64,000 bases of DNA from Spirochaetia bacterium (GCA_965208575.1 CBDBOV010000006.1:1408001-1472000), one strand, 5' to 3'. Shown: positions 3,896 through 44,021, counted from the stretch's first letter. Notes: generated by a model from the letters alone, not told the origin. Numbers and translations: made by a program.

Positions 3896-4026
3896 CCGGC
3901 GCCTCGCAGCCCGTGGCACAGCCCCGGCTGCCGTCCGACGCGCGGCGGCACGATCGGGATGAACGGTTCATGAACGACCGCACGGACAAGTGGAACTGCC
4001 GCGGGGCCGGCGATACGTTTTCCGTC

Positions 4027-4734
4027 ATGGCTGTCGTCACGCTCACCGACGTACGCAAGATCTATCCGCTCGGCAAGACGGAGGTGCACGCCGTCAACGG
4101 CGTGAGCTTCGAGATCGATGAGGGGGACTTCGTCTCCATCGCCGGGCCGTCCGGGTCCGGCAAGACCACGATCCTGAACATGATCGGCTGCATCGACACC
4201 CCCACGTCGGGGACCGTGCGCGTCATGGAAACCGATACTGCCGGCCTGACCGACCGCGCGGTGACCGACCTCCGCCACCAGGTGCTGGGCTTCATCTTCC
4301 AGTCGTTCAACCTGATCCCGGTGCTCGACGTGACCGAGAACGTGGAGTTCCCGCTGCTGATCGGCCAGGCACGGGTGCCGAAGGCGCAACGGGCCGACTG
4401 GGTCCGCTACCTGATCGACGCCGTGGGGCTGGACGAGCACCGCGACCACCGTCCCGCCGAGCTGTCCGGCGGCCAGCGCCAGCGGGTGGCGATTGCCCGC
4501 GCCCTGGCCAACAAGCCGCGCATCGTGCTGGCCGACGAGCCGACCGCCAACCTCGACTCGGAGACCAGCGAGCAGATCATCGAGCTGATGAAGCGCATGA
4601 ACGCGGAGCTCGGCACGACGTTCATCTTCTCCACCCACAAGCCGGCGATCGTCGAGATTGCCGACCACGTCATCCGTCTGCGCGACGGAGTGATCACCGC
4701 GGATTTCAGGACGGAAGCGGAGCCGGCGGCGTGA
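4027..4734 (+). CDS. ABC transporter ATP-binding protein (LolD/MacB-like)
   Basis: Walker A GPSGSGKT, signature LSGGQRQRVAIARAL, Walker B VLADEPTANLD; start taken at MAVVTLTDV rather than the long ORF start. Confidence 0.93.
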   Translation: MAVVTLTDVRKIYPLGKTEVHAVNGVSFEIDEGDFVSIAGPSGSGKTTILNMIGCIDTPTSGTVRVMETDTAGLTDRAVTDLRHQVLGFIFQSFNLIPVLDVTENVEFPLLIGQARVPKAQRADWVRYLIDAVGLDEHRDHRPAELSGGQRQRVAIARALANKPRIVLADEPTANLDSETSEQIIELMKRMNAELGTTFIFSTHKPAIVEIADHVIRLRDGVITADFRTEAEPAA

Positions 4735-6203: not shown

Positions 6204-7543
6204 TGCGCAGCCTGCTCCGCATCGCCTTCCGCAACACCGGCCGCCAGAAGAAGCGCACCCTGCTGCTGGCCGGCGCGATCGCGTTCGGCGTGGTGGTGGT
6301 GACCCTGCTCAACGGGTTCACCGGCGGCGCGTCGCGCAACATCGAACGGGTGCTCACCGACCTGATCGGCGGCCACGTCTACGTCAGCGGCACCGAGCTC
6401 ACCGACTCGCGGCTGATCATCAACGTCATCCGCGACTGGGAGGGCGGAGACTCGTCGCTCGCTGACGTGGTCGGCGAGGTGGAGGGGCAGATCGCCGACC
6501 TGAACCGGCGCAGCCGGACGCTCGGGACGCTGATCTTCGGCTCCAAGCAGACCAACCAGTTCCTCGACGGCGTGGACTGGCACGGCGAGGCGAGCTTTTT
6601 TCCCAGCCTGTCGCTGACGGCGGGATCGCTGCCGGGTCCGGACGACCGCAACGCGCTGATCCTGCCGGAGGCAGCGGCCGAGCGGCTGCGCGTCGAGGTC
6701 GGCGACCAGGTCCTGGTGCGCGTCGCCACGGTCACCGGCCAGCAGAACGTCGGCGAGCTGGTGCTGGCAGCCACCATCGAGGACTCCGGGATCACGGCCT
6801 TCTCCTCGGCCTTCGTCCGCCTGGACTACATGGGCGAGCTGATCGGCACCGGCGCCGGCGAGTTCCAGGTCCTGAATCTGTACCTGCGTGACCCCCGGCA
6901 GTCAGGCCGCGTGGCCGAGGTGTTGCGCGCGCGGCTGCCGACCGCTCCGGAAGACGAACAGGAAGAGGTGAGCGGACAGCCGCCGGGGACGCCGGGGGCG
7001 CTTGGCGCCGGCGTCAAGCGGTTGGCCGACGACGAGGAGCCGTGGGAGGGCACGCGCTTCGAGATCACGACCCTGGACGACATCCTGGATCAGGTCTCGG
7101 ACCTGTTCGGGGTGCTCGACATCGTCAGCCTGGTGGTGTTCCTGATCCTGCTGACGATCACCATGGTCGGGGTCGTGAACACGTTCCGGATGGTGCTGCT
7201 GGAGCGCATCCGGGAGATCGGCACCATGCGCGCGGTCGGCATGCAGGGCCGCTCGGTGCGCGGCATCTTCCTCATGGAGGCCGGCTTCATCGGCCTGATC
7301 GGCGCGCTCATCGGGCTGGTGCTGGCCGGCATCGCCATGCTGGTCCTGGGCCAGCTCACCCTGGACACCGACTCGCCGCTGCAGTTCTTTCTGAACGACG
7401 GCCGGATCACCTTCGCGGTGCCGCCCCTGTCGGTGGTCACCAACGTGGCGATCCTGCTGGCCCTGAGCCTGCTTGCCGCCTTCATTCCCGCGCGCCGCGC
7501 GGCCCGCATGGAGCCGGCGGCGGCGCTGCGCAGCTCGGCATGA
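6203..7543 (+). CDS. ABC transporter permease, FtsX/LolC-E/MacB type (second subunit)
   Basis: IAFRNTGRQKKRT N-terminus, ERIREIGTMRAVG, C-terminal PARRAARMEPAAALR. Confidence 0.9.
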   Translation: MRSLLRIAFRNTGRQKKRTLLLAGAIAFGVVVVTLLNGFTGGASRNIERVLTDLIGGHVYVSGTELTDSRLIINVIRDWEGGDSSLADVVGEVEGQIADLNRRSRTLGTLIFGSKQTNQFLDGVDWHGEASFFPSLSLTAGSLPGPDDRNALILPEAAAERLRVEVGDQVLVRVATVTGQQNVGELVLAATIEDSGITAFSSAFVRLDYMGELIGTGAGEFQVLNLYLRDPRQSGRVAEVLRARLPTAPEDEQEEVSGQPPGTPGALGAGVKRLADDEEPWEGTRFEITTLDDILDQVSDLFGVLDIVSLVVFLILLTITMVGVVNTFRMVLLERIREIGTMRAVGMQGRSVRGIFLMEAGFIGLIGALIGLVLAGIAMLVLGQLTLDTDSPLQFFLNDGRITFAVPPLSVVTNVAILLALSLLAAFIPARRAARMEPAAALRSSA

Positions 7544-7596
7544 GCGGCGCAGGACGATTCCGTGCGAACGACCGACTTCTCTGGAGAAAAGACACC

Positions 7597-8358
7597 ATGA
7601 CCATCCGACGTTTCGCGATAGCGTTCCTGTTCGCTGCCGGACTGCTCACCGGCCCCGGCCTGTGGGCCGCCGACGTCGACGTGCCGTCGCTGCTTGACGA
7701 GATCGACCGGCAGCGCACGTTCGGCGACCAGGATTTCACGGCGGTCATGACGATGATCTCCGAAGATCCCGAGGACGGCGTCGAGCGCCTGGTCGTGCAG
7801 CAGTTCCGGCGGGACGCTGACGACGCGTTCCTGATCCTGTTCCGCGACCCGGCGGTCCAGCGCGGCCAGGGCTACCTGCGCCAGGGGGACAACCTGTGGT
7901 TCTACGATCCGGAGAGCCGCAAGTTCTCGCACACGTCGCTGAAGGAGGCGTTTCAGGGCACCGACGCGCGCAACTCCGACTTCGGCGAGGTCAGCTTCTC
8001 CGAGGATTACGCCGTGCGCGAGATCGACGAGGGTACGCTGGGCAAGTACGCGGTGTACGTGCTGGACCTGCAGGCGACCAGCGACGAGGTGACCTATCCG
8101 TTCCTGAAGGCGTGGGTCACGCGCGAGGGCAGCCTGGTGCTCAAGACCGAGGACTACAGCCTGACCGAGCGGCTGATGCGCACCTCCTACTATCCGCGCT
8201 ACGCCCGCGTCGGTGATTCGGTGGTGCCGACCGAGATGATCTTCGTCGACGAGCTGGTCGAGGGCAAGAAGACCCGGATCAGCATGAGCGACCTGTCCGA
8301 CGCGGCGATCCCGGACTCGGTGTTTACCAAGGCCTACGTCGAGCGGGCCAACCGGTGA
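7597..8358 (+). CDS. LolA-like outer-membrane lipoprotein-sorting protein
   Basis: ATG after GGAG; signal peptide; FRDPAVQRGQGYLRQGDNLWFYDP and FQGTDARNSDF resemble the LolA-like family found next to such ABC operons. Confidence 0.8.
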   Translation: MTIRRFAIAFLFAAGLLTGPGLWAADVDVPSLLDEIDRQRTFGDQDFTAVMTMISEDPEDGVERLVVQQFRRDADDAFLILFRDPAVQRGQGYLRQGDNLWFYDPESRKFSHTSLKEAFQGTDARNSDFGEVSFSEDYAVREIDEGTLGKYAVYVLDLQATSDEVTYPFLKAWVTREGSLVLKTEDYSLTERLMRTSYYPRYARVGDSVVPTEMIFVDELVEGKKTRISMSDLSDAAIPDSVFTKAYVERANR

Positions 8359-9878
8359 GCGCACTCCTGCTCGCCCTGATGCTGGTCGCAGGCGCGGCGG
8401 GCGCGCGGGCGGGCCTGCTGGCGGCGGCGATCCTGTTCGCCGCCGCCCTGGCGGGAGGGGTGGCGGGCGCGCAGGCGATCGACACCGATGAGGAATCGCT
8501 GTTCGGCTCGCCCGAAGAGGATGACGACGGCACGCAGGCGAGTGTCGACACGGCCGATCTGTTCGGCTCGCCCGACGGGGAGGACGACAGCGCAGGCGAA
8601 GGCGCGCTCGATACCTCGGACCTGTTCGATGGCGAGGTGCTGGTTACGGAGCCGGAGGCGGCGGCCGATACGCCCGCGCCGGCCGCCCGGCCGCCGGTCG
8701 AGATAGGCGGTTCGTACCGTTTCTCGCTGACCGGGGAGGCGCACTGGACGTCGCCGGCCGAGCTGGCCGACGAGCCGCTGCAGCCGGACTCGCACCGCGC
8801 CACCGTGGACCTGGGCGCGACCGTGTTCCTGGATGCCCGTCCGGCGGACGACTTCCGGGTGTTTGGCAAGGTAGACCTGAGCTATCCGTTCAGCACCGAT
8901 ACCGACGCGCAGCCGGCGCGCGATTTCGACGACGTGGTCTCGGTAAAGGAGCTGTTCTCGGATTTCTCGATCGGCGACGCGCTGTTCCTGCGCGGCGGCA
9001 AGCACACGATCGCCTGGGGCGTGGGCTACTTCTTCAGTCCGGCGGACGTGCTCAACCTGACCGCCATCGATCCGGAGGATCCCGACGCCGAGCGCGAGGG
9101 GCCGGTGTCGCTGCGCGCCAACCTGCCGATCGACTTTCACAACCTCTACCTGTACGCGATCGCCGACCCGGTCGACGGCGGCGTGCAGTTCGCCGCGGCG
9201 CCCAAGGCGGAGGTGGTGCTGGACGGGGCCGAGGTGGGCATCGGCGCCTACTTCCACCCCGAGCGGGTGCCGCGCGCCATGCTGACGCTGACCACCAGCC
9301 TGCTGGAGTTCGACCTGTTCGCGGAGCTGGAGGGCAGCCTCGGCTCCGACCGCCGGTTCGTGCAGCGGGCCGCCCGCGGCACCGGCAATGCGTTCGGGCT
9401 GCGCACCGCCCGCAACACCGAAGACCCGTTCGCGGCGGCCACGGCCGGGTTGCGCTACACCTACGCGCCGGCCGAGGAGGAGTGGTCGGCCACCCTGGCG
9501 GGCCAGTACCTGTGGAACGGCGAGGGCTACGACGACCCGGACCTGCTGCGCGCCAACCGCGCCGGGGTGGCCGCGCTGCTGGCGGCGGGCGACCTGAGCG
9601 GCGCCGACCTGGCGTTCCGGGGCCGGCACTACGCGGCCGCGTCGCTCAACGTCGCGCTCGGCCGCGGCGCCGACTGGTCGGCCGGCGTGCTGTGGCTGTC
9701 CAACCTGAGCGACGGCTCCGCGCGGGTCGCGCCCTCGGTCACGTTCCGGCCGCTCGACTACCTCAGCCTGCGCGCCGCCGCCACCGTGACCTACGGCGAC
9801 GAAGGCGCTGAAATGACCCCGCTCGGCCCCCGCGTCGGTGTCTCCCTCACCGCCACCCTCGGCTCCGGCCGGTTCTGA
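8355..9878 (+). CDS. Putative outer-membrane beta-barrel protein
   Basis: Signal peptide, acidic N-terminal repeats (DLFGSP), GKHTIAWGVGYFFSPAD motif, alternating beta-strand pattern, terminal Phe. Confidence 0.7.
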   Translation: MSALLLALMLVAGAAGARAGLLAAAILFAAALAGGVAGAQAIDTDEESLFGSPEEDDDGTQASVDTADLFGSPDGEDDSAGEGALDTSDLFDGEVLVTEPEAAADTPAPAARPPVEIGGSYRFSLTGEAHWTSPAELADEPLQPDSHRATVDLGATVFLDARPADDFRVFGKVDLSYPFSTDTDAQPARDFDDVVSVKELFSDFSIGDALFLRGGKHTIAWGVGYFFSPADVLNLTAIDPEDPDAEREGPVSLRANLPIDFHNLYLYAIADPVDGGVQFAAAPKAEVVLDGAEVGIGAYFHPERVPRAMLTLTTSLLEFDLFAELEGSLGSDRRFVQRAARGTGNAFGLRTARNTEDPFAAATAGLRYTYAPAEEEWSATLAGQYLWNGEGYDDPDLLRANRAGVAALLAAGDLSGADLAFRGRHYAAASLNVALGRGADWSAGVLWLSNLSDGSARVAPSVTFRPLDYLSLRAAATVTYGDEGAEMTPLGPRVGVSLTATLGSGRF

Positions 9879-9908
9879 CCGCCCGCCGGTGAGATGAACT
9901 CGGTAATG

Positions 9909-10004
9909 GATACGAAACAGAGATCGACAGTCTGTTGATATACGTAGTATCTATATTCAATCGGCTGCCGCTCCTTGCCATTCCGAGCCGTGAAGGAGTT
10001 GTTC
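9909..10004 (+). promoter_or_regulatory. Conserved AT-rich leader/promoter of array unit 1, with SD AAGGAG; copies precede units 2, 3 and 5
   Basis: Core TTGATATACGTAGTATCTATATTCAA at 9935-9960; variants at 11511-11536, 13104-13129 and 16266-16291; AAGGAG 6 nt before ATG. Confidence 0.65.
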
Positions 10005-11234
10005 ATGGTCCCAGGCTCCGCGCCCGCGGGCGGGCGTCGCCGGTCAGCTCGCGCAGCCCGAGTGCACGCCGCGGCCGCGTTGGGCCTGTTCCTTCTCCTC
10101 GCGCTCACCGGGTGTAGTCGGGCTTCCGGAGCCGCCGGCACGGAGGAGAGTCGGCAAGAACCCGTAATAACCATCGCCGCGGCGGTGGACTCCATGACTG
10201 CCGACGGCCCGCTGCAGTTCCTGGTGCACGCCGCTCCCGCCCCGCGCGCCGCCCTCACCGTCCGCGTCTCCATTGCGGCCGACTCCTGCACCCTCACCCG
10301 AACGTCGGATACGGTGACCATCGCCGCGGGTGAGTCACGCGCCTCCCTCACGGTGGAAACGAGCGGCGTAGCGGTGGGCGCCGGGCGCTGCGTCGTCACC
10401 GCCGCCATCGCGGCCGGCGACGGCTACCGCGCAGGCGCCGCCGAGGCGTCGGCGAGCGCGACCCTGATGCCGGTGCCGCCGGTGGTAACCATCGCGGCGG
10501 GCGACGGCCCGGTGACCGAAGGCGACCCGGTAACGTTCACGCTGACCGCGGCGCCGCCGCCGGCCACACCCCTGGCGGTCGACGTGAGCTGGGAGGAGTC
10601 CGGCTCGTTCCTGACCCCGAGCCGTCCGCAGACGCTCACCATCCCCGCCTCCGGGACCGCCCCGCTCACGGCGGCCACCATCGACGACGGCGCCGACGAG
10701 CCTAATGGCTCGGTGACGGCCACCGTAGCCGCCGGCAGCGGCTACACCGTCGGCCGGGCAGACACGGCCACCGTCGAGGTCACCGACAACGACCCTTCAG
10801 CGCCGTCGACGCCAAGGCCAAGGGGTCCGGTGGTGACCTGCACGGTTGCCGCCACGTTTGTGTGCGAGGGCGCCGACGCGGTGTGGACGCTGCAGGTGAC
10901 CCCGGCACCCGCGTCCTCACTGACGGTCCGTATCAGTCTGACGTACGCTGGAAGACTCTGGTGGCGCCAGCTCCCATCACCTCTCCCGCGTGCCGGCACG
11001 GTCACGATCTCCAGCACCTCCGGGAGGGGCACGTATAGAATGGCCACCGTCGACAACGACGTCAGAAACGATATAGCCCTGATACATCTTGCGGTCGAGC
11101 AGGTCGAGGGCTACGTACCGCCGCCCAGCGGATATGCAGGTGTGACAGTAATGGTTGTGGACAACGAAACGCCTAGCCGTCACTGCCCGACTTCGGCGGC
11201 GGTTCAGGGCGCTTACCCACCCGGCGGGGACTAG
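10005..11234 (+). CDS. Array lipoprotein 1: lipobox + two Calx-beta/Ig-like stalk domains + variable tip domain
   Basis: SD AAGGAG; lipobox LALTGC; VTEGDPVTFTLT...TIDDGADEPNGSVT...VTDND Calx-beta-like motifs. Confidence 0.85.
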   Translation: MVPGSAPAGGRRRSARAARVHAAAALGLFLLLALTGCSRASGAAGTEESRQEPVITIAAAVDSMTADGPLQFLVHAAPAPRAALTVRVSIAADSCTLTRTSDTVTIAAGESRASLTVETSGVAVGAGRCVVTAAIAAGDGYRAGAAEASASATLMPVPPVVTIAAGDGPVTEGDPVTFTLTAAPPPATPLAVDVSWEESGSFLTPSRPQTLTIPASGTAPLTAATIDDGADEPNGSVTATVAAGSGYTVGRADTATVEVTDNDPSAPSTPRPRGPVVTCTVAATFVCEGADAVWTLQVTPAPASSLTVRISLTYAGRLWWRQLPSPLPRAGTVTISSTSGRGTYRMATVDNDVRNDIALIHLAVEQVEGYVPPPSGYAGVTVMVVDNETPSRHCPTSAAVQGAYPPGGD

Positions 11235-11337
11235 GGCGCCCGATGCGCGTGCGGCGCCCAAGCGTGCCGCCGGACGCAAGGCCGTGCGGGTCCGCGCGAT
11301 CGATGCCCTCGACCGACCACGCATCGCGGCGCGTGCG

Positions 11338-11455
11338 GCGCCGACCTGGCGTTCCGGGGCCGGCACTACGCGGCGACGAAGGCGCCGAACTGACCCCGCT
11401 TGGCCCCCGCGTCGGCGCATCCCTCACCGCCACCCTCGGTTCGGGCCGGTTCTGA
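11338..11455 (+). repeat. Internally deleted copy of the 3' end of the beta-barrel gene (8355-9878)
   Basis: Matches 9601-9637 joined to 9798-9878. Confidence 0.92.
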
Positions 11456-11580
11456 CCCCCGACAGTGAGATAAATGCGGAAATTGATACGGAACAGAGAT
11501 CGACAGATTGTTGATGTACGTAGTATATAGATTCAATCGGCTGCCGCTCCTTACCATTCCGAGCCATGAAGGAGTTGTTC

Positions 11581-12825
11581 ATGATCTCAGGCTCCGCGCC
11601 GGCGGGCCGGCATCGGCGGTTAGCTCTCGCAGCCCGAGTGCAGGCCGCGCCCGCGTTCGGCCTGCTCCTTCTCCTCGCGCTCGCGGGGTGTAGTCGGGCT
11701 TCCGGAGCCGCCGGCACGGAGGAGGCCACCCCTGAGAGTCGGCAACCCGTCGTAACCATCGCCGCGGCGGTGGACTCCATGGCTGCCGAGGGGCGGCTGC
11801 AGTTCCTGGTGCACGCCGCTCCCGCCCCGCGGGCCGACCTCACCGTCCGCGTCTCCATCGCGTCCGACCCCTGCAGCCTCACCAGGACGTCGGATACGGT
11901 GACCATCGCCGCGGGTGAGTCACGCGCCGCCCTGACGGTAGAAACGGGCGCCGTAGCGGTGGGCGCCGGGGGCTGCGCCGTCACCGCCACCATCGCGGCC
12001 GGCGACGGCTACCGCGCCGGCGCCGCCGCCAAAACGTCGGCGAGCGCGACCCTCATGCCGGTGCCGCCGGTGGTAACGATCGCGGCGGGCGACAGCCCGG
12101 TGACCGAGGGCGACCCGGTAACGTTCACGCTGACCGCGGCGCCGCCGCCCGCCTCACCCCTGGCGGTCGACGTGAGCTGGGCGGAGTCCGGCAAGTTCCT
12201 GACCCCGAGCCGTCCGCAGACGCTCACCATCCCCGCCACCGGGACCGCAACGCTCACGGCGGCCACCATCGACGACGGCGCCGACGAGCCGGACGGCTCG
12301 GTGACGGCCACCGTAGCCGCCGGCAGCGGCTACACCGTCGGCCGGGCAGACTCGGCCACCGTCGAGGTCACCGACAACGACCCCCCAGCGCGGTCGACTC
12401 CAAGGCCAAGGGTGCCGATGGTGATCGTCACGGTTGACGCCGCGCATGTGTGCGAGGGCGCCGACGCGGTGTGGACGCTGTTCGCGATCCCGGCACCCGC
12501 GTCCTCACTGACGGTCCGTATCAGTCTGAGGTACGCTGGGAGTCTCTGGGGGCACCTGCTCCCATCACCCCTCCCGCGTACCGGCACGGTCTCGATCTCC
12601 AGCACCACCGGGAGGGGCACGTATAGAATGCCCACCATCGACAACGACGTCAGCAGCGATTTAGCCCTGATATATCTTAAGGTCGAGCAGGGCGAGGGCT
12701 ACGTACCGCCGCCCATCGGGAGCAGATATGCAGGTGCCAGAATAGTCGTTTGGGGCAACGGAACGCCTCGCCGCTGCCCGACTTCGGCGGCGGGCCAGGG
12801 CGCTTACCCACCCGGTGGGGACTAG
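11581..12825 (+). CDS. Array lipoprotein 2
   Basis: SD AAGGAG; lipobox LALAGC; same architecture as unit 1 with divergent tip. Confidence 0.85.
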   Translation: MISGSAPAGRHRRLALAARVQAAPAFGLLLLLALAGCSRASGAAGTEEATPESRQPVVTIAAAVDSMAAEGRLQFLVHAAPAPRADLTVRVSIASDPCSLTRTSDTVTIAAGESRAALTVETGAVAVGAGGCAVTATIAAGDGYRAGAAAKTSASATLMPVPPVVTIAAGDSPVTEGDPVTFTLTAAPPPASPLAVDVSWAESGKFLTPSRPQTLTIPATGTATLTAATIDDGADEPDGSVTATVAAGSGYTVGRADSATVEVTDNDPPARSTPRPRVPMVIVTVDAAHVCEGADAVWTLFAIPAPASSLTVRISLRYAGSLWGHLLPSPLPRTGTVSISSTTGRGTYRMPTIDNDVSSDLALIYLKVEQGEGYVPPPIGSRYAGARIVVWGNGTPRRCPTSAAGQGAYPPGGD

Positions 12826-12930
12826 GGCACGCCCGGTGCGCGTGCGGCGCCCAAGCGTGCCGCCGGACGCAAGGCCGTGCGGTTCCGCGCGATCAATACC
12901 CTCGACCGACCACGCATCGCGGCGCGTGCG

Positions 12931-13045
12931 GCGCCGTCCTGGCGTTCCGGGGCCGGCACTACGCGGCGACGAAGGCGCCGAAATGACCCCGCTCGGCCCT
13001 CGCGTCGGCGCCTCCCTCAGCGCCACCCTCGGCTCCGGCCGGTTC
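12931..13045 (+). repeat. Second internally deleted copy of the beta-barrel gene 3' end
   Basis: Same 9601-9637/9798-9875 junction; the TGA is mutated. Confidence 0.9.
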
Positions 13046-13173
13046 CGGCCGCCCGACGGTGAGATGAATGCGGAGATGATACGGAACAGAGATCGACAGA
13101 TTGTTGATATATGTAGTATCTATATTCAATCGGCCGCCGCTCCTCACCATTCCGAGCCGTGAGGGAGTTGTTC

Positions 13174-14757
13174 ATGACCCCAGGTTCCTCGCCGGCGGGC
13201 CGGCATCGCCGGTCAGCTCGTGCAGCCCGAGTGCAGGCCGCGGCTGCGTTTGGCCTGCTTCTGTTCCTCGCGCTCGCGGGGTGTAGTCGGGCTTCCGGAG
13301 CCGCCGGCACGGAGGAGGCCACCCCTGAGAGTCGGCAACCCGTCGTAACCATCGCCGCGGCGGTGGACTCCATGGCTGCCGAGGGGCGGCTGCAGTTCCT
13401 GGTGCACGCCGCTCCCGCCCCGCGGGCCGCCCTAACCGTCCGCGTCTCCATCGCGGCCGACTCCTGCACCCTCACCCGAACGTCGGATACGGTGACCATC
13501 GCCGCGGGTGAGTCACGCGCCACCCTCACGGTAGAAACGGGCGCCGTAGCGGTGGGCGCCGGGGGCTGCGCCGTCACCGCCACCATCGCGGCCGGCGACG
13601 GCTACCGCGCAGGGGCCGCCAAGGCGTCGGCGAGCGCGAACCTCATGCCGGTGCCGCCGGTGGTAACCATCGCGGCGGGCGACAGCCCGGTGACCGAAGG
13701 CCACCCGGTAACGTTCACGCTGACCGCGGCGCCGCCGCCGGCCTCCCCCCTGACCGTCGACGTAGAGTGGGAGGAGTCCGACTCGTTCCTGACCCCGAGC
13801 CCTCCGCAGACGGTCACCATCCCCGCCACCGGGACCGCCACGCTCACGGCGGACACCGACGACGACGGTACCGACGAGCCGGACGGCTCGGTGACGGCCA
13901 CCGTAGCCGCCGGCAGCGGCTACACCGTCGGCCGGGCAGACACGGCCACCGTCGAGGTCACCGACAACGACCCGCCAGCGCGGTCGACTCCAGGGCCAAG
14001 GGTGCCGGTGGTGTTCGTCACGGTTAACGCCACGCATGTGTGCGAGGGCGCCGACGCGGTGTGGACGCTGTTCGCGGTCCCGGCACCCACGTCGACACTG
14101 ATGGTCCGTATCAGTCTGTCGTACTCGGGAAGTCGCTGGGAGCAACTGGTCCCATCACCCATCCCGCGTGCCGGCACGGTCTCGATCTCCAGCACCACCG
14201 GGAGGGGCACGTATAGAATGACCACCGTCGATAACGACGTCGGCAGCGACATAGCCCTTTTATTCCTTACGGTCGAGCGGGGCGAGGGCTACCTACCGCC
14301 GCCCAGCGGGAGCAGATACGCAGGTGGCAGATATGTAGGTGTGAAAATAATCGCTTGGGACAACGAATCGCCTAGCCGGCACTGTCCGGCGGTAACCATC
14401 GCGGCGGGCGCCAGCCCGGTGACCGAAGGCAACCCGGTGACGTTCACGCTGACCGCGGCGGCGCCGCCGGCCTCCTCCCTGACGGTCGACGTGGGCTGGG
14501 AGGAGTCCGGCTCGTTCCTGACCCCGAGCCCTCCGCAGACGGTCACCATCCCCGCATCCGGGACAGCCACGCTCACGGCGGACACCGTCGACGACGGTAC
14601 CGACGAGACGGACGGCTCGGTGACGGCAACCGTCGCGACCGGCAGTGGCTACACCGTCGGCTCGACAGACTCGGCCACCGTCGAGGTCACCGACAACGAC
14701 CCGTCCAGCGCCGTCGACTCCAGGGCCAAGGGTTCCGGTGGTGACCGTCGAGGCTGA
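13174..14757 (+). CDS. Array lipoprotein 3, with an extra stalk domain after the tip and a frameshifted tail
   Basis: Lipobox LALAGC; third Calx-beta-like repeat at ~14389-14700; extra T at ~14704 shifts the frame relative to the paralogues. Confidence 0.8.
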   Translation: MTPGSSPAGRHRRSARAARVQAAAAFGLLLFLALAGCSRASGAAGTEEATPESRQPVVTIAAAVDSMAAEGRLQFLVHAAPAPRAALTVRVSIAADSCTLTRTSDTVTIAAGESRATLTVETGAVAVGAGGCAVTATIAAGDGYRAGAAKASASANLMPVPPVVTIAAGDSPVTEGHPVTFTLTAAPPPASPLTVDVEWEESDSFLTPSPPQTVTIPATGTATLTADTDDDGTDEPDGSVTATVAAGSGYTVGRADTATVEVTDNDPPARSTPGPRVPVVFVTVNATHVCEGADAVWTLFAVPAPTSTLMVRISLSYSGSRWEQLVPSPIPRAGTVSISSTTGRGTYRMTTVDNDVGSDIALLFLTVERGEGYLPPPSGSRYAGGRYVGVKIIAWDNESPSRHCPAVTIAAGASPVTEGNPVTFTLTAAAPPASSLTVDVGWEESGSFLTPSPPQTVTIPASGTATLTADTVDDGTDETDGSVTATVATGSGYTVGSTDSATVEVTDNDPSSAVDSRAKGSGGDRRG

Positions 14758-14779
14758 AGCCACGCATGTGGTGCCGCCG

Positions 14780-15946
14780 ATGTCCAGGTCAGCCCGCGCA
14801 GCCCGAGTGCAGGCCGCGGCCGCGTTGAGCCTGCTCCTCGCGCTCGCGGGGTGTAGTCGGGCTTCCGGAGTCGCCGGCACGGAGGCCGCCCCCGAGAGCC
14901 CGCAAGAACCGGTCGTGACCATCGCCACGGCGGTGGACTCCGTGACTGCCGACGAGCCGCTGCAGTTCCTGGTGCACGTCCCTCCCGCCCCGCGGGCCGA
15001 CCTCACCGTCCGCGTCTCCATCGCGTCCGACCCCTGCACCCTCACCAGGACGTCGGATACGGTGACCATCGCCGCGGGTGAGTCACGCGCCACCCTGACG
15101 GTAGAAACGGGCGGCGCAGCGGTGGGGGCCGGGGGCTGCGTCGTCACCGCCACCATCGCGGCCGGCGACGGCTACCGCGCCGGCGCCGCCGCCAAGGCGT
15201 CGGCGAGCGCGACCCTCATGCCGATGCCGCCGGTGGTAACGATCGCGGCGGGCGACGGCCCGGTGACCGAAGGCGACCCGGTAACGTTCACGCTGACCGC
15301 GGCGCCGCCGCCGGCCTCCCCCCTGACCGTCGACGTAGAGTGGGAGGAGTCCGACTCGTTCCTGACCCCGAGCCCTCCGCAGACGGTCACCATCCCCGCC
15401 ACCGGGACCGCAACGCTCACGGCGGACACCGACGACGACGGTACCGACGAGCCGGACGGCTCGGTGACGGCCACCGTAGCCGCCGGCAGCGGCTACACCG
15501 TCGGCCGGGCAGACTCGGCCACCGTCGAGGTCACCGACAACGACCCGCCAGCGCCGTCGACTCCAAGGCCAAGGGTTCCGGCGGTGACCGCCACGGCTGA
15601 CGCCAGGGACGTGTGCGAGGGCGACGCCGCGGTGTGGACGCTGACCGCGACCCCGGCACCCGCGTCCGCACTGTCCGTCCATGTCAGTCTGTTCTACTCC
15701 GCACTTTACCCCGGATCGTTCAGGCAGCTCCCATCACCCCGCCCGGTCACGATTTCCACCGCCGGGACGGGCACGTATAGTTTCGCCACCGTCGACAACG
15801 ACACCCGCGGGGAGAGACAATATCTCTCTCTCAGGGTCGATCCCGGCGCCGGCTACGTACCAGGGCCCGATACGAGGCCCATTGGGCGCCGATTTATCGG
15901 TGTGAGAATCGTCGTTAATGACAACGATGAGTTTCCCTGCCCGTAG
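14780..15946 (+). CDS. Array lipoprotein 4 (lacks the conserved leader)
   Basis: MSRSARAARVQAAAALSLLLALAGC lipoprotein signal; same stalk; tip of the second subfamily; start codon uncertain. Confidence 0.75.
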   Translation: MSRSARAARVQAAAALSLLLALAGCSRASGVAGTEAAPESPQEPVVTIATAVDSVTADEPLQFLVHVPPAPRADLTVRVSIASDPCTLTRTSDTVTIAAGESRATLTVETGGAAVGAGGCVVTATIAAGDGYRAGAAAKASASATLMPMPPVVTIAAGDGPVTEGDPVTFTLTAAPPPASPLTVDVEWEESDSFLTPSPPQTVTIPATGTATLTADTDDDGTDEPDGSVTATVAAGSGYTVGRADSATVEVTDNDPPAPSTPRPRVPAVTATADARDVCEGDAAVWTLTATPAPASALSVHVSLFYSALYPGSFRQLPSPRPVTISTAGTGTYSFATVDNDTRGERQYLSLRVDPGAGYVPGPDTRPIGRRFIGVRIVVNDNDEFPCP

Positions 15947-16092
15947 TCGGCGGCGACCTATGGCGCTTTCGCACCCGGCGGGGACTAGGGCACGTCCGGT
16001 GCGGTGCGGCGCGCAAGCGTGCCGCGGGAGGCAAGGCCGTGCGGTTCCGCGCGATCGATACCCTCGACCGACCACGCATCGCGGCGCGGGCG

Positions 16093-16210
16093 GCGCCGAC
16101 CTGGCGTTCCGGGGCCGGCACTACGCGGCGACGAAGGCGCCGAAATGACGCCGCCCGGCCCCCGCGTCGGCGCCTCCCTCACCGCCACCCTCGGCTCGGG
16201 CCGGTTCTGA
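16093..16210 (+). repeat. Third internally deleted copy of the beta-barrel gene 3' end
   Basis: Same junction, ends GGCCGGTTCTGA. Confidence 0.92.
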
Positions 16211-16335
16211 CCCCCGACAGTGAGATAAATGCGGAAATTGATACGGAACAGAGATCGACAGATTGTTGATGTACGTAGTATGTAGATTCAATCGGCTGCC
16301 GCTCCTTACCATTCCGAGCCATGAAGGAGTTATTC

Positions 16336-17631
16336 ATGATCTCTGGTTCCGCGCCGGCGGGCCGGCAACGCAATAGCCGGTCAACTCTCGCAGCCCGAGT
16401 GCAGGCCGCGGCCGCGTTGAGCCTGCTCCTCGCGCTCGCGGGGTGTAGTCGGGCTTCCGGAGCCGCCGGCACGGAGGCCGCCCCCGAGAGCCCGCAAGAA
16501 CCGGTAGTGACCATCGCCACAGCGGTGGACTCCGTGACTGCCGGCGAGTCGCTGCAGTTCCTGGTGCACGCCGCTCCCGCCCCGCGCGCCGACCTCACCG
16601 TCCGCGTCTCCATCGCGTCCGACTCCTGCACCCTCACCAGGTCGTCGGATACGGTGACCATCGTCGCGGGTGAGTCACGCGCCACCCTGACGGTAGAAAC
16701 GGGCGCCGCAGCGGTGGGGGCCGGGGGCTGCGTCGTCACCGCCACCATCGCGGCCGGCGACGGCTACCGCACGGGCGCCGCCAAGGCGTCGGCGAGCGCG
16801 ACCCTCATGCCGGTGCAGCCGGTGGTAACCATCGCGGCGGGCGACGGCCCGGTGACCGAAGGCGACCCGGTAACGTTCACGCTGACCGCGGCGCCGCCGC
16901 CGGCCTCCCCCCTGACCGTCGACGTAGAGTGGGAGGAGTCCGACTCGTTCCTGACCCCGAGCCCTCCGCAGACGGTCACCATCCCCGCCACCGGGACCGC
17001 AACGCTCACGGCGGACACCGACGACGACGGTACCGACGAGCCGGACGGCTCGGTGACGGCCACCGTAGTCGCCGGCAGCGGCTACACCGTCGGCCGGGCA
17101 GACGCGGCCACCGTCGAGGTCACCGACAACGACCCTCCAGCGCCGTCGACTCCAAGGCCAAGGGTGCCGGTGGTGACCGCCAGGGCTGTCGCCAGGCAGA
17201 TATGCGAGGGCGCCGACGCGGTGTGGAAGCTGACCGCGACCCCGGCACCCGCGTCCGCACTGTCCGTCAATGTCAGTCTGTTCTACGAAGCACTTTGGCC
17301 CGGATCGTTCAGGCAGCTCCCATCACGCCCGGTCTCGATCTCCAGCGCCGGGACGGGCCGGTATAGTATGGCCACCGTCGACAACCACTCCCGCGACATT
17401 CACCAATACCTATTTCTCAGGGTCGATCCCGGCGCCGGCTACGTAGCAGGGCCCGTTACGAGCCCCGTTTGGCGCCGATTAGTATTAATCGTCGTTTTGG
17501 ACGCGGACGCACTGGCGTGCGGTTCCGCACGGCATGAGCCTGAACGGACGGATCCGCCAGATGCTCGAACAGAGCGTGTCAGGCCGACAGGTCCAGAACA
17601 CCTGAAGCGGTTCAAGACCGCGAAACCGTAA
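16336..17631 (+). CDS. Array lipoprotein 5 (C-terminus runs into spacer-derived and unique sequence)
   Basis: SD AAGGAG; lipobox LALAGC; tip related to unit 4. Confidence 0.83.
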   Translation: MISGSAPAGRQRNSRSTLAARVQAAAALSLLLALAGCSRASGAAGTEAAPESPQEPVVTIATAVDSVTAGESLQFLVHAAPAPRADLTVRVSIASDSCTLTRSSDTVTIVAGESRATLTVETGAAAVGAGGCVVTATIAAGDGYRTGAAKASASATLMPVQPVVTIAAGDGPVTEGDPVTFTLTAAPPPASPLTVDVEWEESDSFLTPSPPQTVTIPATGTATLTADTDDDGTDEPDGSVTATVVAGSGYTVGRADAATVEVTDNDPPAPSTPRPRVPVVTARAVARQICEGADAVWKLTATPAPASALSVNVSLFYEALWPGSFRQLPSRPVSISSAGTGRYSMATVDNHSRDIHQYLFLRVDPGAGYVAGPVTSPVWRRLVLIVVLDADALACGSARHEPERTDPPDARTERVRPTGPEHLKRFKTAKP

Positions 17632-17668
17632 ATCAAGGTAATCAAAAAGGGCTTCGTTCACTCGTTTC

Positions 17669-17698
17669 TTGACATCCTCAGTGAATGAAAATGACGAT
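17669..17698 (+). promoter_or_regulatory. Possible sigma70-type promoter for the Fic gene
   Basis: Perfect TTGACA at 17669-17674 and weak -10 GACGAT at 17693-17698, 7 nt before ATG 17706 (would imply a leaderless mRNA). Confidence 0.35.
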
Positions 17699-17705
17699 GA
17701 CTGTC

Positions 17706-18581
17706 ATGGCTACTTCGGCTCACTTCAGAAGCCGTATCCAGGCACTGCACCGGGAGTACGCCAACCTGCGGCACGGCAAGGAGTCGCTCCTGGCAGTGAT
17801 CGACGAGGTGGAGATCCCGGAGAGCGTGTACAACTCCAACGCCATCGAGAACTCCACGCTCACCCTGGAGGAGACCGAGAAGATCCTGCTCGAGCAGATG
17901 CTGTCCCGCAATGTGTCGGTGCGGGAAGTGTTCGAGGCAGTCAACCTGGCTCGGGTCATCGGGTACCAGCGGAAGAGGTCCGGGGACGCCGATCCGGGCA
18001 AGGAACGAATCCTGCTGTTGCACCGGATGCTCCTCGGAGCGATAGACGACGACATCGCGGGGCGCTTTCGCGGCCCCGGGGAGTACGTGCGGGCAGGTAG
18101 CCACATCGCGCCGGCGCCGGAACAGGTGGAAGGCATGATCGACGAGATACTGTTGCAATACGACAGTAGCCTCGACGCCTACTTCCTGGACAGGATCGCT
18201 CGATTTCACCTGGACTTCGAAGTGATCCATCCCTTTTGCGACGGCAATGGCCGGCTGGGGCGGGTAATCATCAATGCCCAACTGCGGAAGGTGGGGCTGC
18301 CGCCGTTGATCGTTCGCAACTCGGAAAAGCAGACCTACTATCGCGCCTTCCGGGAGTACACCGACCGCAAGCGCACCGCTACCATGGAGCGGATCCTGGC
18401 GCTGGCGCTACTGGAGTCTCTGCACAAGCGGCGGAGTTACCTGCTGGGGCAACGCATCACTACGCTGTCCGACTACATCAGACAGGAAGGCCGGTCCGCC
18501 CCGGCCGTCACCAACGCCGCCCGCCGCCAGACAATTCCAGCGTTTCGCGAAAAGGGAGTGTGGAAGATCGGCCAGCCATGA
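17706..18581 (+). CDS. Fic family protein
   Basis: Canonical Fic motif HPFCDGNGRLGR; N-terminal SNAIEN (S/T)xxxE(G/N) autoinhibition motif; alternative starts from 17685. Confidence 0.93.
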   Translation: MATSAHFRSRIQALHREYANLRHGKESLLAVIDEVEIPESVYNSNAIENSTLTLEETEKILLEQMLSRNVSVREVFEAVNLARVIGYQRKRSGDADPGKERILLLHRMLLGAIDDDIAGRFRGPGEYVRAGSHIAPAPEQVEGMIDEILLQYDSSLDAYFLDRIARFHLDFEVIHPFCDGNGRLGRVIINAQLRKVGLPPLIVRNSEKQTYYRAFREYTDRKRTATMERILALALLESLHKRRSYLLGQRITTLSDYIRQEGRSAPAVTNAARRQTIPAFREKGVWKIGQP

Positions 18582-20653
18582 GTAACTGGATCACGCGGGT
18601 GGCGACCGACGTCGGCGGCACGTTCACGGACCTGGTCAGATTCGACGTCGATCCCGCGTCGGGCCGGTCGCGGGTGACCACGGCGAAGACGGCGACCACT
18701 CCGCCGGAGTTCGAACGCGGCGTGATCGAGGTGCTGAGCAAGGGCGGCGTGGCGCTGCCCGAGATCGATTTTCTCGCCCACGGCACGACCGTCGTCATCA
18801 ACGCGCTCACCGAGCGCAGGGGGGCGAAGGTGGGGCTGATCACCACCGCGGGGTTCCGCGACACGCTGGAGATCGCCCGCGGCAACCGCCCCGACCTGTT
18901 CAACCTGCACTACCGCAAGCCGCAGCCGTTCGTGCCGCGCTACCTGCGCCGCGAGCTGCCGGGCCGGATCAACTACCGCGGCATGGAAGTGCGGCCGCTC
19001 GACCTGTCGCCGCTGGCGGCGATCGTCGCGGACTTCCGTTCCGCCGGCGTGGAGGCGGTGGCGATCTGCTTCCTGCACTCGTACGCAAACGATGCGCACG
19101 AACGCGCCGCCGAGGCGGAGGTGCGGCGGCTGTGGCCCGGCGTATACGCGGTGTCGTCGCATACCATCGTGCGCGAGTGGCGCGAGTATGAGCGCACCAG
19201 TACGACGGTGCTGTCCGCCTTTGTGCAGCCGACCGCGGAACGCTACCTGCGCCGCCTGAGCGACGGCCTCGCCAGCCGGGGGTTCGCCGGCAGTCCTTTC
19301 GTGATGCAGTCCAACGGCGGCGTCGATTCGCTGCAGGCCGCGGCGCGGACGCCGATCACGATGATCGAATCGGGACCCTCCTCCGGCGTGCGGGGCGCCG
19401 CCGAGCTCGGTGCGCTGATCGGCGATGCGAACGTCATCGCCCTGGACATCGGCGGCACCACGGCGAAGTGCTCGCTCATCGACCGGGGCAACATCAGGAT
19501 CGTGAGCGACTACTGGATCGGGCGCGACCGCCGGTCGGCGGGCTACCCGGTGATGGTGCCGGTGGTCGACATGGTGGAGATCGGCAACGGCGGCGGTTCG
19601 ATAGCCTGGGCCGACGGCTTCGGCAAGCTGCACGTGGGGCCGCGTTCGGCGGGCGCGGTCCCCGGTCCGGCCGCCTACGGCATGGGAGGCCGTGACGCGA
19701 CCACCACCGACGCCAACCTGTGGCTGGGAAGGATCAACCGCGACTACTTCTGCGGCGGCGAGCTGGACGCGGACATGGACGCCGTGGAAGCGGCGCTGCG
19801 GGAGGTGGGCGGCCGGCTCGGCCTCGGGCCCGACCAGGCGGCCGCCGGCATCGTCCGGATCGCCAACAACAACATGGTCAACGCGCTCAAGCTGGTGTCG
19901 CTCAACCGGGGGTTCGACCCGCGCGAGTTCACGCTGGTCGCGTTCGGCGGCGGCGGTGGCATGCACGCGGTCGCGCTCGCCGCCGAGCTCGGCATCGCCA
20001 AGGTGGTGATACCGGCGGACGCGGCCGTGTTCTCGGCGTGGGGAATGATGATGTCCGACCTGCGCCGCGACTACATCGCGACGCGCCTGCTGGAGCTGGT
20101 TCCCGACAACGCGGCCGCGATCGAGAGCGCGCTGGCGGAGACCGAGGAGGAGGCGCGGGCACGGTTCCGGCGCGAAGGCGTCGCTCGCGGGCGCCTGTCG
20201 TTCCGGAGGTCCGGCAGGTTCCGCTACCAGAACCAGGAACACACCACCGAGGTCGCGCTCGGGGAGGGCGCGGTGACGGCGGACCGCGTGCGCGCAATCA
20301 GGGGCGCGTTCGAACGGGAATACGAACGCGAGTACACGTACCGCCTGGACGCTCCCGTGGAGATGGTCGGAATCCACGTCACGGCCACGGCAGCGGTGGG
20401 CCGCGTGCAGATGGAGCGGCAGGAACCCGGCCCGGAGAGCGCGGCCGGGGCGCACAAGGGTGCCAGGAAGGTCGACTTCGCACCGGAGGGGGCGTTCGAG
20501 ACCGCGATCTACGACGGCGCCGGGCTCCGGCCGGGCATGCGCTTCCCCGGTCCGGCAATCGTCGAGCATCCGGCGTCGACCGTGGTCGTGCACCGCGGCA
20601 ACGACGCGCAGGTGGACGGCTACGGCAACGTGGTCATCCACACCCATGCGTGA
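18578..20653 (+). CDS. Hydantoinase/5-oxoprolinase subunit A family
   Basis: DVGGTFTD, HGTTVVINAL, REYERTSTT, DIGGTTA, GPRSAGAVPGPAAYG, FGGGGGMH. Confidence 0.94.
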   Translation: MSNWITRVATDVGGTFTDLVRFDVDPASGRSRVTTAKTATTPPEFERGVIEVLSKGGVALPEIDFLAHGTTVVINALTERRGAKVGLITTAGFRDTLEIARGNRPDLFNLHYRKPQPFVPRYLRRELPGRINYRGMEVRPLDLSPLAAIVADFRSAGVEAVAICFLHSYANDAHERAAEAEVRRLWPGVYAVSSHTIVREWREYERTSTTVLSAFVQPTAERYLRRLSDGLASRGFAGSPFVMQSNGGVDSLQAAARTPITMIESGPSSGVRGAAELGALIGDANVIALDIGGTTAKCSLIDRGNIRIVSDYWIGRDRRSAGYPVMVPVVDMVEIGNGGGSIAWADGFGKLHVGPRSAGAVPGPAAYGMGGRDATTTDANLWLGRINRDYFCGGELDADMDAVEAALREVGGRLGLGPDQAAAGIVRIANNNMVNALKLVSLNRGFDPREFTLVAFGGGGGMHAVALAAELGIAKVVIPADAAVFSAWGMMMSDLRRDYIATRLLELVPDNAAAIESALAETEEEARARFRREGVARGRLSFRRSGRFRYQNQEHTTEVALGEGAVTADRVRAIRGAFEREYEREYTYRLDAPVEMVGIHVTATAAVGRVQMERQEPGPESAAGAHKGARKVDFAPEGAFETAIYDGAGLRPGMRFPGPAIVEHPASTVVVHRGNDAQVDGYGNVVIHTHA

Positions 20654-31123: not shown

Positions 31124-31150
31124 TCTCTCGTTGAGTCGAAAGAGACGCGA

Positions 31151-33808: not shown

Positions 33809-33814
33809 CGTGGC

Positions 33815-43988: not shown

Positions 43989-44021
43989 ACACCGATCGCG
44001 AGCAAGCCGGTGCGATTCGAT

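Follow-up and report, generated by a model that had tools for sequence, protein, structure and literature searches.

What generates, and what maintains, a tandem array of lipoprotein genes whose products differ mainly in their last domain? This question is raised by a locus of an uncultured Spirochaetia bacterium, which we analyzed within a stretch of 64,000 nucleotides (the window; GCA_965208575.1 CBDBOV010000006.1:1408001-1472000, i.e. contig C6 of assembly G000, which comprises 6.5 Mb in six contigs with approx. 67% G+C). The array occupies positions 9794-17631 of the window and is composed of five units of approx. 1.58 kb, encoding the proteins g1 to g5, each with a signal peptide and the domains D1, D2 and D3. 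With a probability of roughly 0.6, we consider it to be a lineage-specific and young expansion of lipoproteins resembling adhesins, in which both gene conversion and diversifying selection on D3 have played a part. An earlier note on this DNA had proposed an antibody-like repertoire, in which D1 and D2 formed constant stalks and D3 a hypervariable tip.

Organization of the array

Five open reading frames (ORFs) on the + strand (9975-11234, 11566-12825, 13159-14757, 14645-15946 and 16321-17631) are present at the place indicated in the earlier note, together with direct-repeat families in five copies, which are spaced by 1585, 1593, 1570 and 1592 nt and are 88-94% identical across 300 nt. ATG start codons close to a Shine-Dalgarno (SD) sequence are located at 10005, 11581, 13174 and 16336. 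Each unit encodes (i) a lipobox signal peptide, (ii) D1, which contains two conserved Cys residues and is separated from the lipobox Cys by a short acidic tether, (iii) D2, (iv) a Pro-rich linker, also noted previously, and (v) the divergent D3, with V/I-C-E-G near its start and a second Cys at its end. The D3 coordinates proposed earlier were right within 1 nt, and the D3 framework (CEG..AVW.L...PAP.S.L.V..SL.Y ... G.Y...T.DN ... GY) was recovered, as were the indels in its loops and the two flanking Cys residues. The two stalk domains, which had been called almost identical, are conserved among the copies (80-96% identity) but not identical, and D1 and D2 share 40% identity with each other. 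Units 2, 3 and 5 are headed by a relic (77-90% identical) of the last approx. 85-115 nt of the upstream gene, which encodes a 507-aa protein; the duplications therefore arose in place.

The proposed lipobox was recovered in all five copies, where L[A/T]GC (LTGC or LAGC) follows a charged n-region and a Leu-rich hydrophobic core; the Cys is residue 37 from the SD-proximal ATG (residue 25 in g4). The PROSITE-like pattern applied also matched 42 of the 54 family sequences of alignment A1. The genome encodes Lgt (LGT PF01790, E 1.4e-63), LspA (Peptidase_A8 PF01252, E 8.4e-33) and Lnt (LNT_N and CN_hydrolase, in a gene neighboring one of the dispersed paralogs described below). The array products are predicted to be lipoproteins.

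Divergence is concentrated in D3 and bounded by homogenized DNA

As the earlier note had anticipated, divergence along the genes is not uniform. We aligned 18 sequences of the subfamily, six of them from this genome (the array and one copy on contig C3) and the remaining twelve from other assemblies. Identity between pairs averages 0.83 in D1, 0.86 in D2 and 0.61 in D3; invariant columns number 46 of 107, 58 of 105 and 29 of 121, and high-entropy columns 3, 3 and 43, respectively. Two tip types can be distinguished in the array, A (g1, g2 and g3) and B (g4 and g5).

The nucleotide identity of units 1 and 4 is 0.88-0.98 from the start codon to approx. 10824, 0.53-0.67 across 10944-11217 (D3, with an island of 0.88 at 10998-11057) and 0.91-1.00 in the 3′ intergenic region (11217-11580). 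Since identity is high on both flanks of D3, the variable segment is bounded by homogenized DNA on either side, and the proposed division into a conserved part and a variable tip is real and sharply delimited in the identity profile. In the constant part, patches of 100% identity change partners along the genes (g2 = g3 at codons 46-90; g3 = g4 = g5 at codons approx. 181-240) and the trees obtained from D1 and D2 disagree, which together constitute a signature of gene conversion.

The G+C content of third codon positions (GC3) is 0.90-0.92 in D1-D2, like that of the neighboring genes, and 0.73-0.77 in D3. The lower value fits a segment that has escaped conversion; a foreign origin of the tips would fit it too. 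Across the genome, genes of this family have a GC3 of 0.80-0.85 versus mostly 0.81-0.97 for their neighbors; in the array the difference is due to D3 alone.

All three domains are predicted to share the Calx-beta fold

Profile searches placed the proteins at the margin of known families. The LapA profile (PF20579) scored 24.6 bits with g1, 18.6 with g2, 17.9 with g3 and 18.1 with g4 (gathering score 27) and did not match g5; despite the sub-threshold score, P0005 (= g1) bears the precomputed protein-database label PF20579.5. The Calx-beta family (PF03160) was matched neither by the five proteins (E<=0.01) nor by isolated D1, D2 or D3 (E<=10), isolated D3 gave no Pfam match whatever at E<=10, and NCBIfam gave no match to the array proteins. 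A faint Big_3_5 match was obtained on D2 (E 0.21). According to hhalign, D1, D2 and D3 are homologous to one another (D2 and D3: probability 98.7%, E 2e-16, 32% identity; D1 and D2: 97.6%; D1 and D3: 89%).

The AlphaFold2 model of g2 has a mean predicted local distance difference test (pLDDT) score of 84.1, with blocks of 73-96 in D3, and its low values are confined to the signal peptide, the tether and the 12 C-terminal residues; D3 modeled alone reached a pLDDT of 87.6 and a predicted template modeling score of 0.81. In a comparison with 48,161 solved chains (VIA-align), D2 matched calcium-binding domain 1 (CBD1) of NCX1 (3gin_A; Z 12.4, root-mean-square deviation (rmsd) 2.2 Å, 106/116 residues) and D1 matched the Calx-beta domain of integrin beta4 (3fq4_A; Z 11.6), with folds other than Calx-beta scoring at most 9.4 for these two domains. 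D3 alone also matched 3gin_A (Z 10.2, rmsd 2.6 over 110 residues), and its top six rows are all Calx-beta (Z 10.2, 9.9, 9.9, 9.6, 9.3 and 8.9). Foldseek listed calcium-binding domains of NCX/CALX in 14 of the 15 top rows for D3, with template modeling (TM) scores of up to 0.67/0.73 (3ead, CALX-CBD1), and returned nothing but low-TM multi-domain matches for the whole three-domain model. The ESM Atlas neighbors of the homologue P0014 are Calx-beta/LapA clusters.

By these models, all three domains have the Calx-beta fold, outside the Pfam model, and the Calx-beta likeness suggested for the stalk is borne out for D3 as well. Given the shared homology and fold, the "Ig-like stalk" and the "tip" are one kind of domain: the tip stands apart in its divergence, but by fold it is a third, diverged Calx-beta domain and not a separate domain type. 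An excerpt of bioRxiv 10.1101/791178 assigns the calcium sites of CBD1 to residues of the E-F loop and the C-terminus. D2 carries DDG[AT]DEP[DN]G (E-F loop) and a terminal DND at the corresponding positions; D3 keeps DND (DNH in g5) and a terminal D/N-rich stretch, which are putative calcium ligands.

Tests for selection on D3

Codon-based tests were limited to the six copies of this one genome, because scans of genome and metagenome DNA gave relatives of at most 57% identity. By the Nei-Gojobori method, synonymous divergence (dS) of the constant part is 0.03-0.14 and the ratio of nonsynonymous to synonymous divergence (dN/dS, or omega) 0.5-1.2; for tips of the same type dS is 0.06-0.14, dN 0.14-0.20 and dN/dS 1.2-2.3, and for tips of different types dS is approx. 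0.5 and the ratio approx. 1. Pairwise maximum likelihood (ML; GY94, F3x4) gave an omega of 0.35-0.71 for the constant part, with values below 1 at a doubled log-likelihood difference (2dlnL) >3.84 in four of the six pairs.

Site models (M0, M1a and M2a) were fitted with our own code. Under M0, omega is 0.44 in the constant part and 1.2-1.55 in the tip. M2a was preferred over M1a for the whole tip (2dlnL 59.3), for columns at least 2 away from gaps (55.9) and for the two tip halves, each on its own tree (47.5 and 24.1). In the fits to the whole tip, to the clean columns and to the first half, approx. 23-29% of sites were assigned an omega of 6-10; for the second half, 13% were assigned an omega of approx. 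8. The same comparison gave 1.6 and 1.4 for D1 and D2 on their own trees. Nonsynonymous and synonymous changes between g1 and g2 were counted as 43:7 in the tip versus 31:20 in the constant part (p 0.006).

These codon-level results provide good but not conclusive support for the view that some D3 positions, set in a conserved framework, are under diversifying selection. They agree with the fixed framework with variable positions in between that had been noticed at this locus, a subset of D3 sites having an omega well above 1 in the site models.

Position of the fast sites and of the Cys pair

Twenty-three columns had a posterior >0.8 in at least one run, and 21 of them map onto g2. These were placed by the order of the DSSP strands in the g2 D3 model (280-285, 289-291, 296-303, 310-319, 334-339, 345-350, 361-368 and 386-391) and the alternation of an up-and-down sandwich, not by coordinates. 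By strand order, 16 of the 21 lie at the end of D3 that holds the C-terminus. Two of them (288-289) directly precede V-C-E-G, two are at the close of strand C (317 and 319), five belong to the C-D loop (321, 322, 324, 325 and 333) and three to the E-F loop (358-360), three more open strand F (361-363), and one ends strand G (391). The enrichment is modest (one-sided binomial approx. 0.013, by hand), since about half of the D3 residues (rough count) belong to this end. The fast sites would thus be found for the most part in three loops (A-A′, C-D and E-F) and at strand ends, far from the anchor, and probably at the end which binds calcium in canonical Calx-beta domains. By strand order, the expectation that variable residues would cluster on one face or group of loops would hold for these 16 sites, but not for the other five.

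By the same strand logic, both Cys residues of D3 would be situated at its C-terminal end. Both are present in 17 of 17 subfamily members, and the first is absent from all 37 other family members; the members with the pair form one clade, so that this co-occurrence counts as a single event. Aromatic residues make up 21% of the fast sites versus 7% of the rest of D3, and Arg/Lys 16% versus 6%, although the cells compared are not independent.

Distribution and genomic setting of the family

The genome yielded 28 matches to g2, including the sixth full-length copy, on C3 (74% identity). Approx. nine dispersed paralogs of 400-510 aa share the signal peptide, D1 and D2 and have unrelated-looking C-terminal domains. 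No partner genes are common to these nine; their neighbors are unrelated metabolic or housekeeping genes and, in two cases, transposase/integrase genes. In a database of 5.8 billion clusters, the Cys-closed type of D3 was found in only 17 proteins, each of which is encoded either in this genome or in an ENA assembly, and three ENA contigs carry two subfamily genes each (P0007+P0016, P0010+P0036 and P0011+P0017). Matches at E<=1e-10 occur in 8 of 31 related genomes (this one included), among them 5 of 10 congeners. The congener G006 contains a tandem pair with approx. 70% identity over the signal peptide, D1 and D2, and with unlike C-terminal domains.

The named sources of close homologues are metagenome-assembled genomes (MAGs) of Spirochaetaceae. 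In MAGs of other phyla, a D1-D2-like module lies within ORFs of at least 1000 aa at 24 of the 27 loci examined. Its bearers include Ca. Poriferihabitaceae, Ca. Poriferisocius, Nitrospirales, Acidimicrobiales, Binatia and Alpha-/Gammaproteobacteria, and one example is a 2602-aa autotransporter-like protein. A search with the D3 profile matched 1580 representative proteins, mostly giant and multi-repeat, and in proteins of 1000-7700 aa the Calx-beta-like module is repeated as many as 26 times. In the present genome, the same domain type was also recognized in a 4860-aa ORF (C3:544051-558630) and in two near-identical proteins of approx. 1280-1310 aa (C2:90994-94830 and C3:342002-345931), the C-terminal part of which looks like an autotransporter barrel.

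Genes flanking the array are present, at approx. 96% identity, in two sponge-metagenome runs (X5 records 17 and 24; X7 record 25), and the bacterium is probably a sponge-associated spirochaete. At the syntenic site of four congeners (G001, G006, G007 and G011), the cluster ABC-FtsX-FtsX-LolA_like-507-aa is kept and the array is absent in all four cases; hydantoinase genes are also kept in G001, G006 and G007. Moreover, in one contig of the sponge-metagenome run X7, position 9885 is joined directly to 17530 (the shorter side of the joint comprises 59 letters), which suggests a related population without the array. The array therefore represents a lineage-specific insertion and expansion at a variable spot.

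The gap between the gene of the 507-aa protein and the hydantoinase genes (window 9879-18600) is a variable hotspot among the congeners: it is empty in G001, contains a partial Fic gene in G006 and an AddA/AddB-like helicase-nuclease plus Fic in G007, and holds the array plus Fic here. A functional link to the adjacent Lol-like cluster was considered and ruled out, since the cluster is kept without the array in the four congeners and the adjacency is therefore incidental.

Interpretation and alternative explanations

We propose that each gene encodes a small lipoprotein in which an N-terminal lipid anchor and a short acidic tether would carry three homologous domains of the Calx-beta fold. Gene conversion or unequal crossing-over would homogenize all but D3. 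A D3 segment of approx. 370 nt escapes this process; it preserves the framework of a beta-sandwich, while in the site models about a quarter of its codons change amino acids faster than silent sites, and selection would retain and diversify the resulting variants. The subfamily-specific Cys pair may staple the variable, C-terminal end of D3. The five proteins would then act as adhesin-like binding modules of differing specificities on the envelope of a bacterium in sponge tissue, and their diversity would stem from ordinary processes (duplication, point substitution, indels in loops and recombination), with no dedicated hypermutation or cassette switching.

Several results weigh against this proposal. 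(i) In pairwise ML the omega of the tip is 0.64-2.1 and never significantly different from 1 (largest 2dlnL 3.4), and the count test gave p<0.05 in one of five pairs (the others: 0.053, 0.21, 0.59 and 0.34). (ii) The support from site models rests on our own code and on six sequences of one genome, with recombination present: D1+D2 forced onto one tree gave a spurious 2dlnL of 12.3, a value attainable by recombination alone, and eight M1a null simulations on the tip tree gave 0-9.8, one of the eight reaching 9.8. (iii) By strand order, five of the 21 fast sites (301, 365, 379, 382 and 383) are mid-strand or anchor-proximal. (iv) The "constant" part varies between assemblies: D3 of P0003 and P0004 is 100% identical and D1-D2 86%, and P0007 and P0010 share 96% (D3) versus 88% (D1-D2). 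(v) Two of the five copies are rearranged; g4 lacks a ribosome-binding site of its own, and g3 is fused to an extra domain, so that its D3 is internal and not a tip.

Under relaxed constraint, copies made redundant by recent duplication would be drifting in D3 (omega approx. 1) while their 5′ part is reset by gene conversion, with neither diversifying selection nor differing specificities. Besides the pairwise tests of the tip and the rearranged copies, this explanation is favored by the near-uniform distribution of tip differences over codon positions (e.g. 17:16:18 for g4-g5), by the lower GC3 of D3, as expected of decay under AT-biased mutation, and by the dispensability of the array in congeners. 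Nevertheless, we regard it as unlikely, because D3 retains its 29 invariant columns and an intact frame in all copies and models confidently as a folded domain, because M1a, which allows neutral sites, was rejected in favor of M2a (2dlnL 24-59, compared with 0-9.8 in the null simulations), and because tip types are kept between assemblies (g3 and P0003 81% identical, P0003 and P0004 100%).

The same array and the same selection could also have been driven by phages or predators for which the tip of the lipoprotein serves as receptor; the variation would in that case be a means of evasion and not of diversifying the binding of host or matrix ligands. Receptor-evasion arms races produce selection that is focused on one end of an exposed domain, and copy number appears to vary between populations, as judged from the X7 joint. 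Evasion usually proceeds through loss or masking of the receptor, which leaves five kept variants with aromatic- and Arg-rich loops unexplained, and no phage-related genes adjoin the array; we thus find this agent improbable.

A more specific version of our proposal, to which we give a low likelihood, is that the tips form a symbiont repertoire directed at the Calx-beta-based system by which the sponge achieves adhesion and self-recognition, docking onto, or mimicking, its polymorphic Calx-beta surfaces in a calcium-dependent manner. According to an excerpt of PMC5400394, five similar genes, which are clustered and highly polymorphic, encode the sponge Aggregation Factor, with 2-14 Calx-beta domains in each, and portions of PMC11706023 and PMC9531527 name Calx-beta among the domains enriched in sponge symbionts. 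If this were so, the tips might favor retention of the symbiont over its being eaten, and they could follow the genotypes of the host; homologous recombination in the identical flanks of D3 would allow an exchange of tips between copies and strains, giving a population-level constant/variable system without dedicated machinery.

The adhesin-like expansion that we favor has consequences for work on sponge symbionts. The known enrichment of these bacteria in "eukaryotic-like" adhesion domains, of which Calx-beta is one, comes mostly from Pfam counts, and the family of this array is missed by Pfam, although Calx-beta by predicted fold. The locus adds an anchored three-domain architecture and a signal for the part of the molecule that is likely to face a changing partner, and it offers concrete variants whose binding to Aggregation Factor or to the sponge matrix can be assayed. 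In addition, it illustrates cleanly, in a natural setting, how a selected segment can be flanked on either side by DNA evolving in concert. Should the tips bind molecules of the host, it would become easier to test directly how a sponge distinguishes its symbionts from its food; if they do not, the array is an ordinary lineage-specific adhesin expansion.

Comparison with known systems

Among described systems, the closest in architecture and in the way it evolves is LigA/LigB of Leptospira, which are likewise spirochaetal lipoproteins with tandem beta-sandwich domains, a shared 5′ part and unique C-terminal domains. Parts of PMC7821625 describe identical upstream DNA and identical first six and a half Ig-like domains in the two genes, unique C-terminal domains that carry binding, and recombination between lig genes; an excerpt of PMC3012076 calls Big domains calcium-binding modules. 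The Lig proteins have 12-13 Big_2 domains and belong to a pathogen, whereas here three domains of the predicted Calx-beta fold are encoded in five tandem copies by an uncultured, sponge-metagenome-associated bacterium. The Pfam search gave no match to Big_2 in the array proteins, and since Lig domains are Big_2, the array is not a member of the Lig family; what the two have in common is architecture and evolution and not descent.

The predicted fold is that of NCX/CALX CBD1 and CBD2, of integrin beta4 and of the giant Calx-beta/LapA adhesins. The array proteins differ from these in being small, three-domain lipoproteins outside PF03160, and in the subfamily-specific Cys pair and fast-evolving loops of the last domain. 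The only solved chains matched by the family profile over D3 are streptococcal IgI3 domains, 6v3p_C (beta protein / IgA Fc receptor; E 9e-5) and 8cxj_D (R28; E 0.18). Both are surface adhesin domains, weakly matched in sequence; the structure searches with D3 rank Calx-beta first, and neither chain is among the matches listed.

Families of switching lipoproteins include vls/Vmp of Borrelia and Vlp/Vsa of Mycoplasma, and TvpA of Treponema denticola is diversified by a diversity-generating retroelement (DGR). The array resembles them in its conserved signal peptide and 5′ region, variable C-terminus, multigene organization and host association, but no cassettes, switch, reverse transcriptase or template repeat were found here.

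Programmed variation, either by a DGR acting on D3 or by promoterless vls/pil-like cassettes donating tips to an expression site, would have been suggested by the 91-100% identical DNA on both sides of D3, which permits cassette exchange, by the conversion patches in the stalk and by the missing upstream region of g4. It is very unlikely for the following reasons. None of the seven RVT_1 matches of the genome is close to the array (approx. C6:1417800-1425600), and even the nearest one on C6, at 951763-952107, is more than 460 kb away; there is no template repeat, and the tip substitutions comprise all six base-pair types with no adenine bias, which together rule out a DGR. Silent cassettes of the vls/pilS kind are ruled out by the presence of an own SD, ATG and signal peptide in four of the five copies, only g4 being without an upstream region. 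No simple-sequence repeats occur at the 5′ ends (a single 15-nt x2 repeat is located inside g3), and the only inverted repeats are weak and G+C-rich, none flanking the upstream regions, which rules out switching by simple repeats or an invertible promoter. In addition, the tip differences represent old divergence (dS approx. 0.5 between types) and not fresh shuffling. The variation of the array is evolutionary and not programmed.

Five of the RVT ORFs (474 aa, with identical scores; C1:508404, C2:296168, C2:586254, C5:153543 and C6:487662) are probably copies of one group II intron or retroelement, and two more are partial.

The comparison with an antibody repertoire was overstated: diversification machinery is missing, tip types are stable and shared between assemblies, and the "constant" part is a conversion mosaic. 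Among the papers listed by the literature searches, judged by titles and starts of abstracts, none on this family was found, although supplementary tables of sponge-symbiont papers could list members under Pfam counts. The earlier note, which did not recognize a described system, was thus half right: the occurrence of Calx-beta in sponge symbionts and the plan of LigA/LigB were already known. It is an unannotated family of a familiar theme, that of paralogous anchored adhesin-like proteins with a diversifying distal domain.

Rearranged units 3 and 4

Unit 3 has no stop codon after D3. The frame stays open through an additional D2 copy followed by a linker that is frameshifted; the direct-repeat analysis revealed a sixth, partial copy of the D2 region at approx. 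14270-14640. In the next frame after this tail, the first approx. 10 residues of D3 are fused to the signal peptide of g4, and g4 is therefore without an upstream region and ribosome-binding site of its own. The fused form of g3 is also present in other assemblies, as P0003 and P0004 (532 aa, with the same frameshifted tail), and probably represents a working four-domain variant with an internal D3.

The four sequencing runs compared consist of short-read contigs, none of which spans the whole array, so that its full contiguity rests on the assembly. Both junctions of the partial extra unit are bridged with 0 differences by contigs of two runs (X1 record 6; X4 records 12 and 13), and two other studies contributed runs in which the first junction recurs in a form that shows differences (X5 record 22; X7 record 28). 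An assembly artifact, in which strain variants of one single-copy gene would have been stacked into a chimera, is thus extremely unlikely, even though the contigs fragment throughout it and related populations may lack it (X7 joint), given these exact unit-specific junctions, the independent occurrence of the odd g3 fusion, the ENA contigs with two subfamily genes each and the diverged relic of the upstream gene carried by each unit.

Coordinates of the features and neighboring genes

The positions of the individual features are listed in Table 1. The conserved segments upstream of the genes presumably hold a promoter; no sigma-70-like promoters were called at these segments, and no intrinsic terminators between units. 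The C-terminal tail of g5 is unique because the repeat stops near 17520-17530.

Table 1. Features of the lipoprotein array (window positions)
Feature	Position	Strand	Remarks
Unit 1 start: 3′ end of the 507-aa gene (stop ends 9878) and first intergenic bases	9794-9908	+	Repeat family D11; copied at the head of units 2, 3 and 5
Conserved upstream segments, less G+C-rich	9909-10004, 11486-11580, 13079-13173, 16241-16335	+	AAGGAG six bases ahead of ATG
g1 lipoprotein, 409 aa from SD-proximal ATG	10005-11234	+	Lipobox Cys codon 10113; D1 from 10161; D2 from 10479; Pro-rich linker from 10794
g1 D3, tip type A	10824-11186	+	Cys codons 10863 and 11184; Calx-beta fold (predicted)
Relic of 507-aa gene 3′ end, head of unit 2	11371-11485	+	77% identical to 9794-9908
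g2 lipoprotein, 414 aa; the copy modeled	11581-12825	+	Lipobox Cys codon 11689
g2 D3, tip type A	12412-12777	+	Isolated model pLDDT 87.6; best structural matches Calx-beta CBD1
Relic of 507-aa gene 3′ end, head of unit 3	12964-13078	+	90% identical to 9794-9908
g3, four-domain fused form (signal peptide-D1-D2-linker-D3-D2′-frameshifted linker tail)	13174-14757	+	527 aa from ATG; 532-aa ORF
g3 D3, tip type A, longest F-G loop	14002-14385	+	
Partial extra unit: D2′ copy, frameshifted linker, first approx. 10 D3 codons	14389-14779	+	D2′ 68-80% nt identity to reference copies of direct-repeat families D1-D3; joined to g4 signal peptide
g4 lipoprotein, 388 aa from ATG 14780	14780-15946	+	Lipobox Cys codon 14852; no upstream region or SD of its own
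g4 D3, tip type B	15575-15940	+	
Relic of 507-aa gene 3′ end, head of unit 5	16126-16240	+	78% identical to 9794-9908
g5 lipoprotein, 431 aa	16336-17631	+	Lipobox Cys codon 16444; unique tail after second Cys
g5 D3, tip type B	17164-17520	+	

The Lol-like cluster upstream of the array (window 3172-9878), the order of which is conserved in the four congeners, encodes an ABC ATPase (in ORF 3172-4734), two FtsX-type permeases (4731-6203 and 6200-7543), a LolA_like protein (7600-8358) and the 507-aa protein. The last of these has no family match and ends in ...GSGRF, a terminal Phe being typical of outer-membrane barrels. Directly after the array lies a gene of the Fic/DOC family (17685-18581) with a lower G+C content (0.62-0.65). 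Two further low-G+C islands, at window 31000-35000 (0.56-0.60) and 44000-46000 (0.51-0.54), stand out from surroundings of approx. 0.70 and may represent horizontally acquired DNA.

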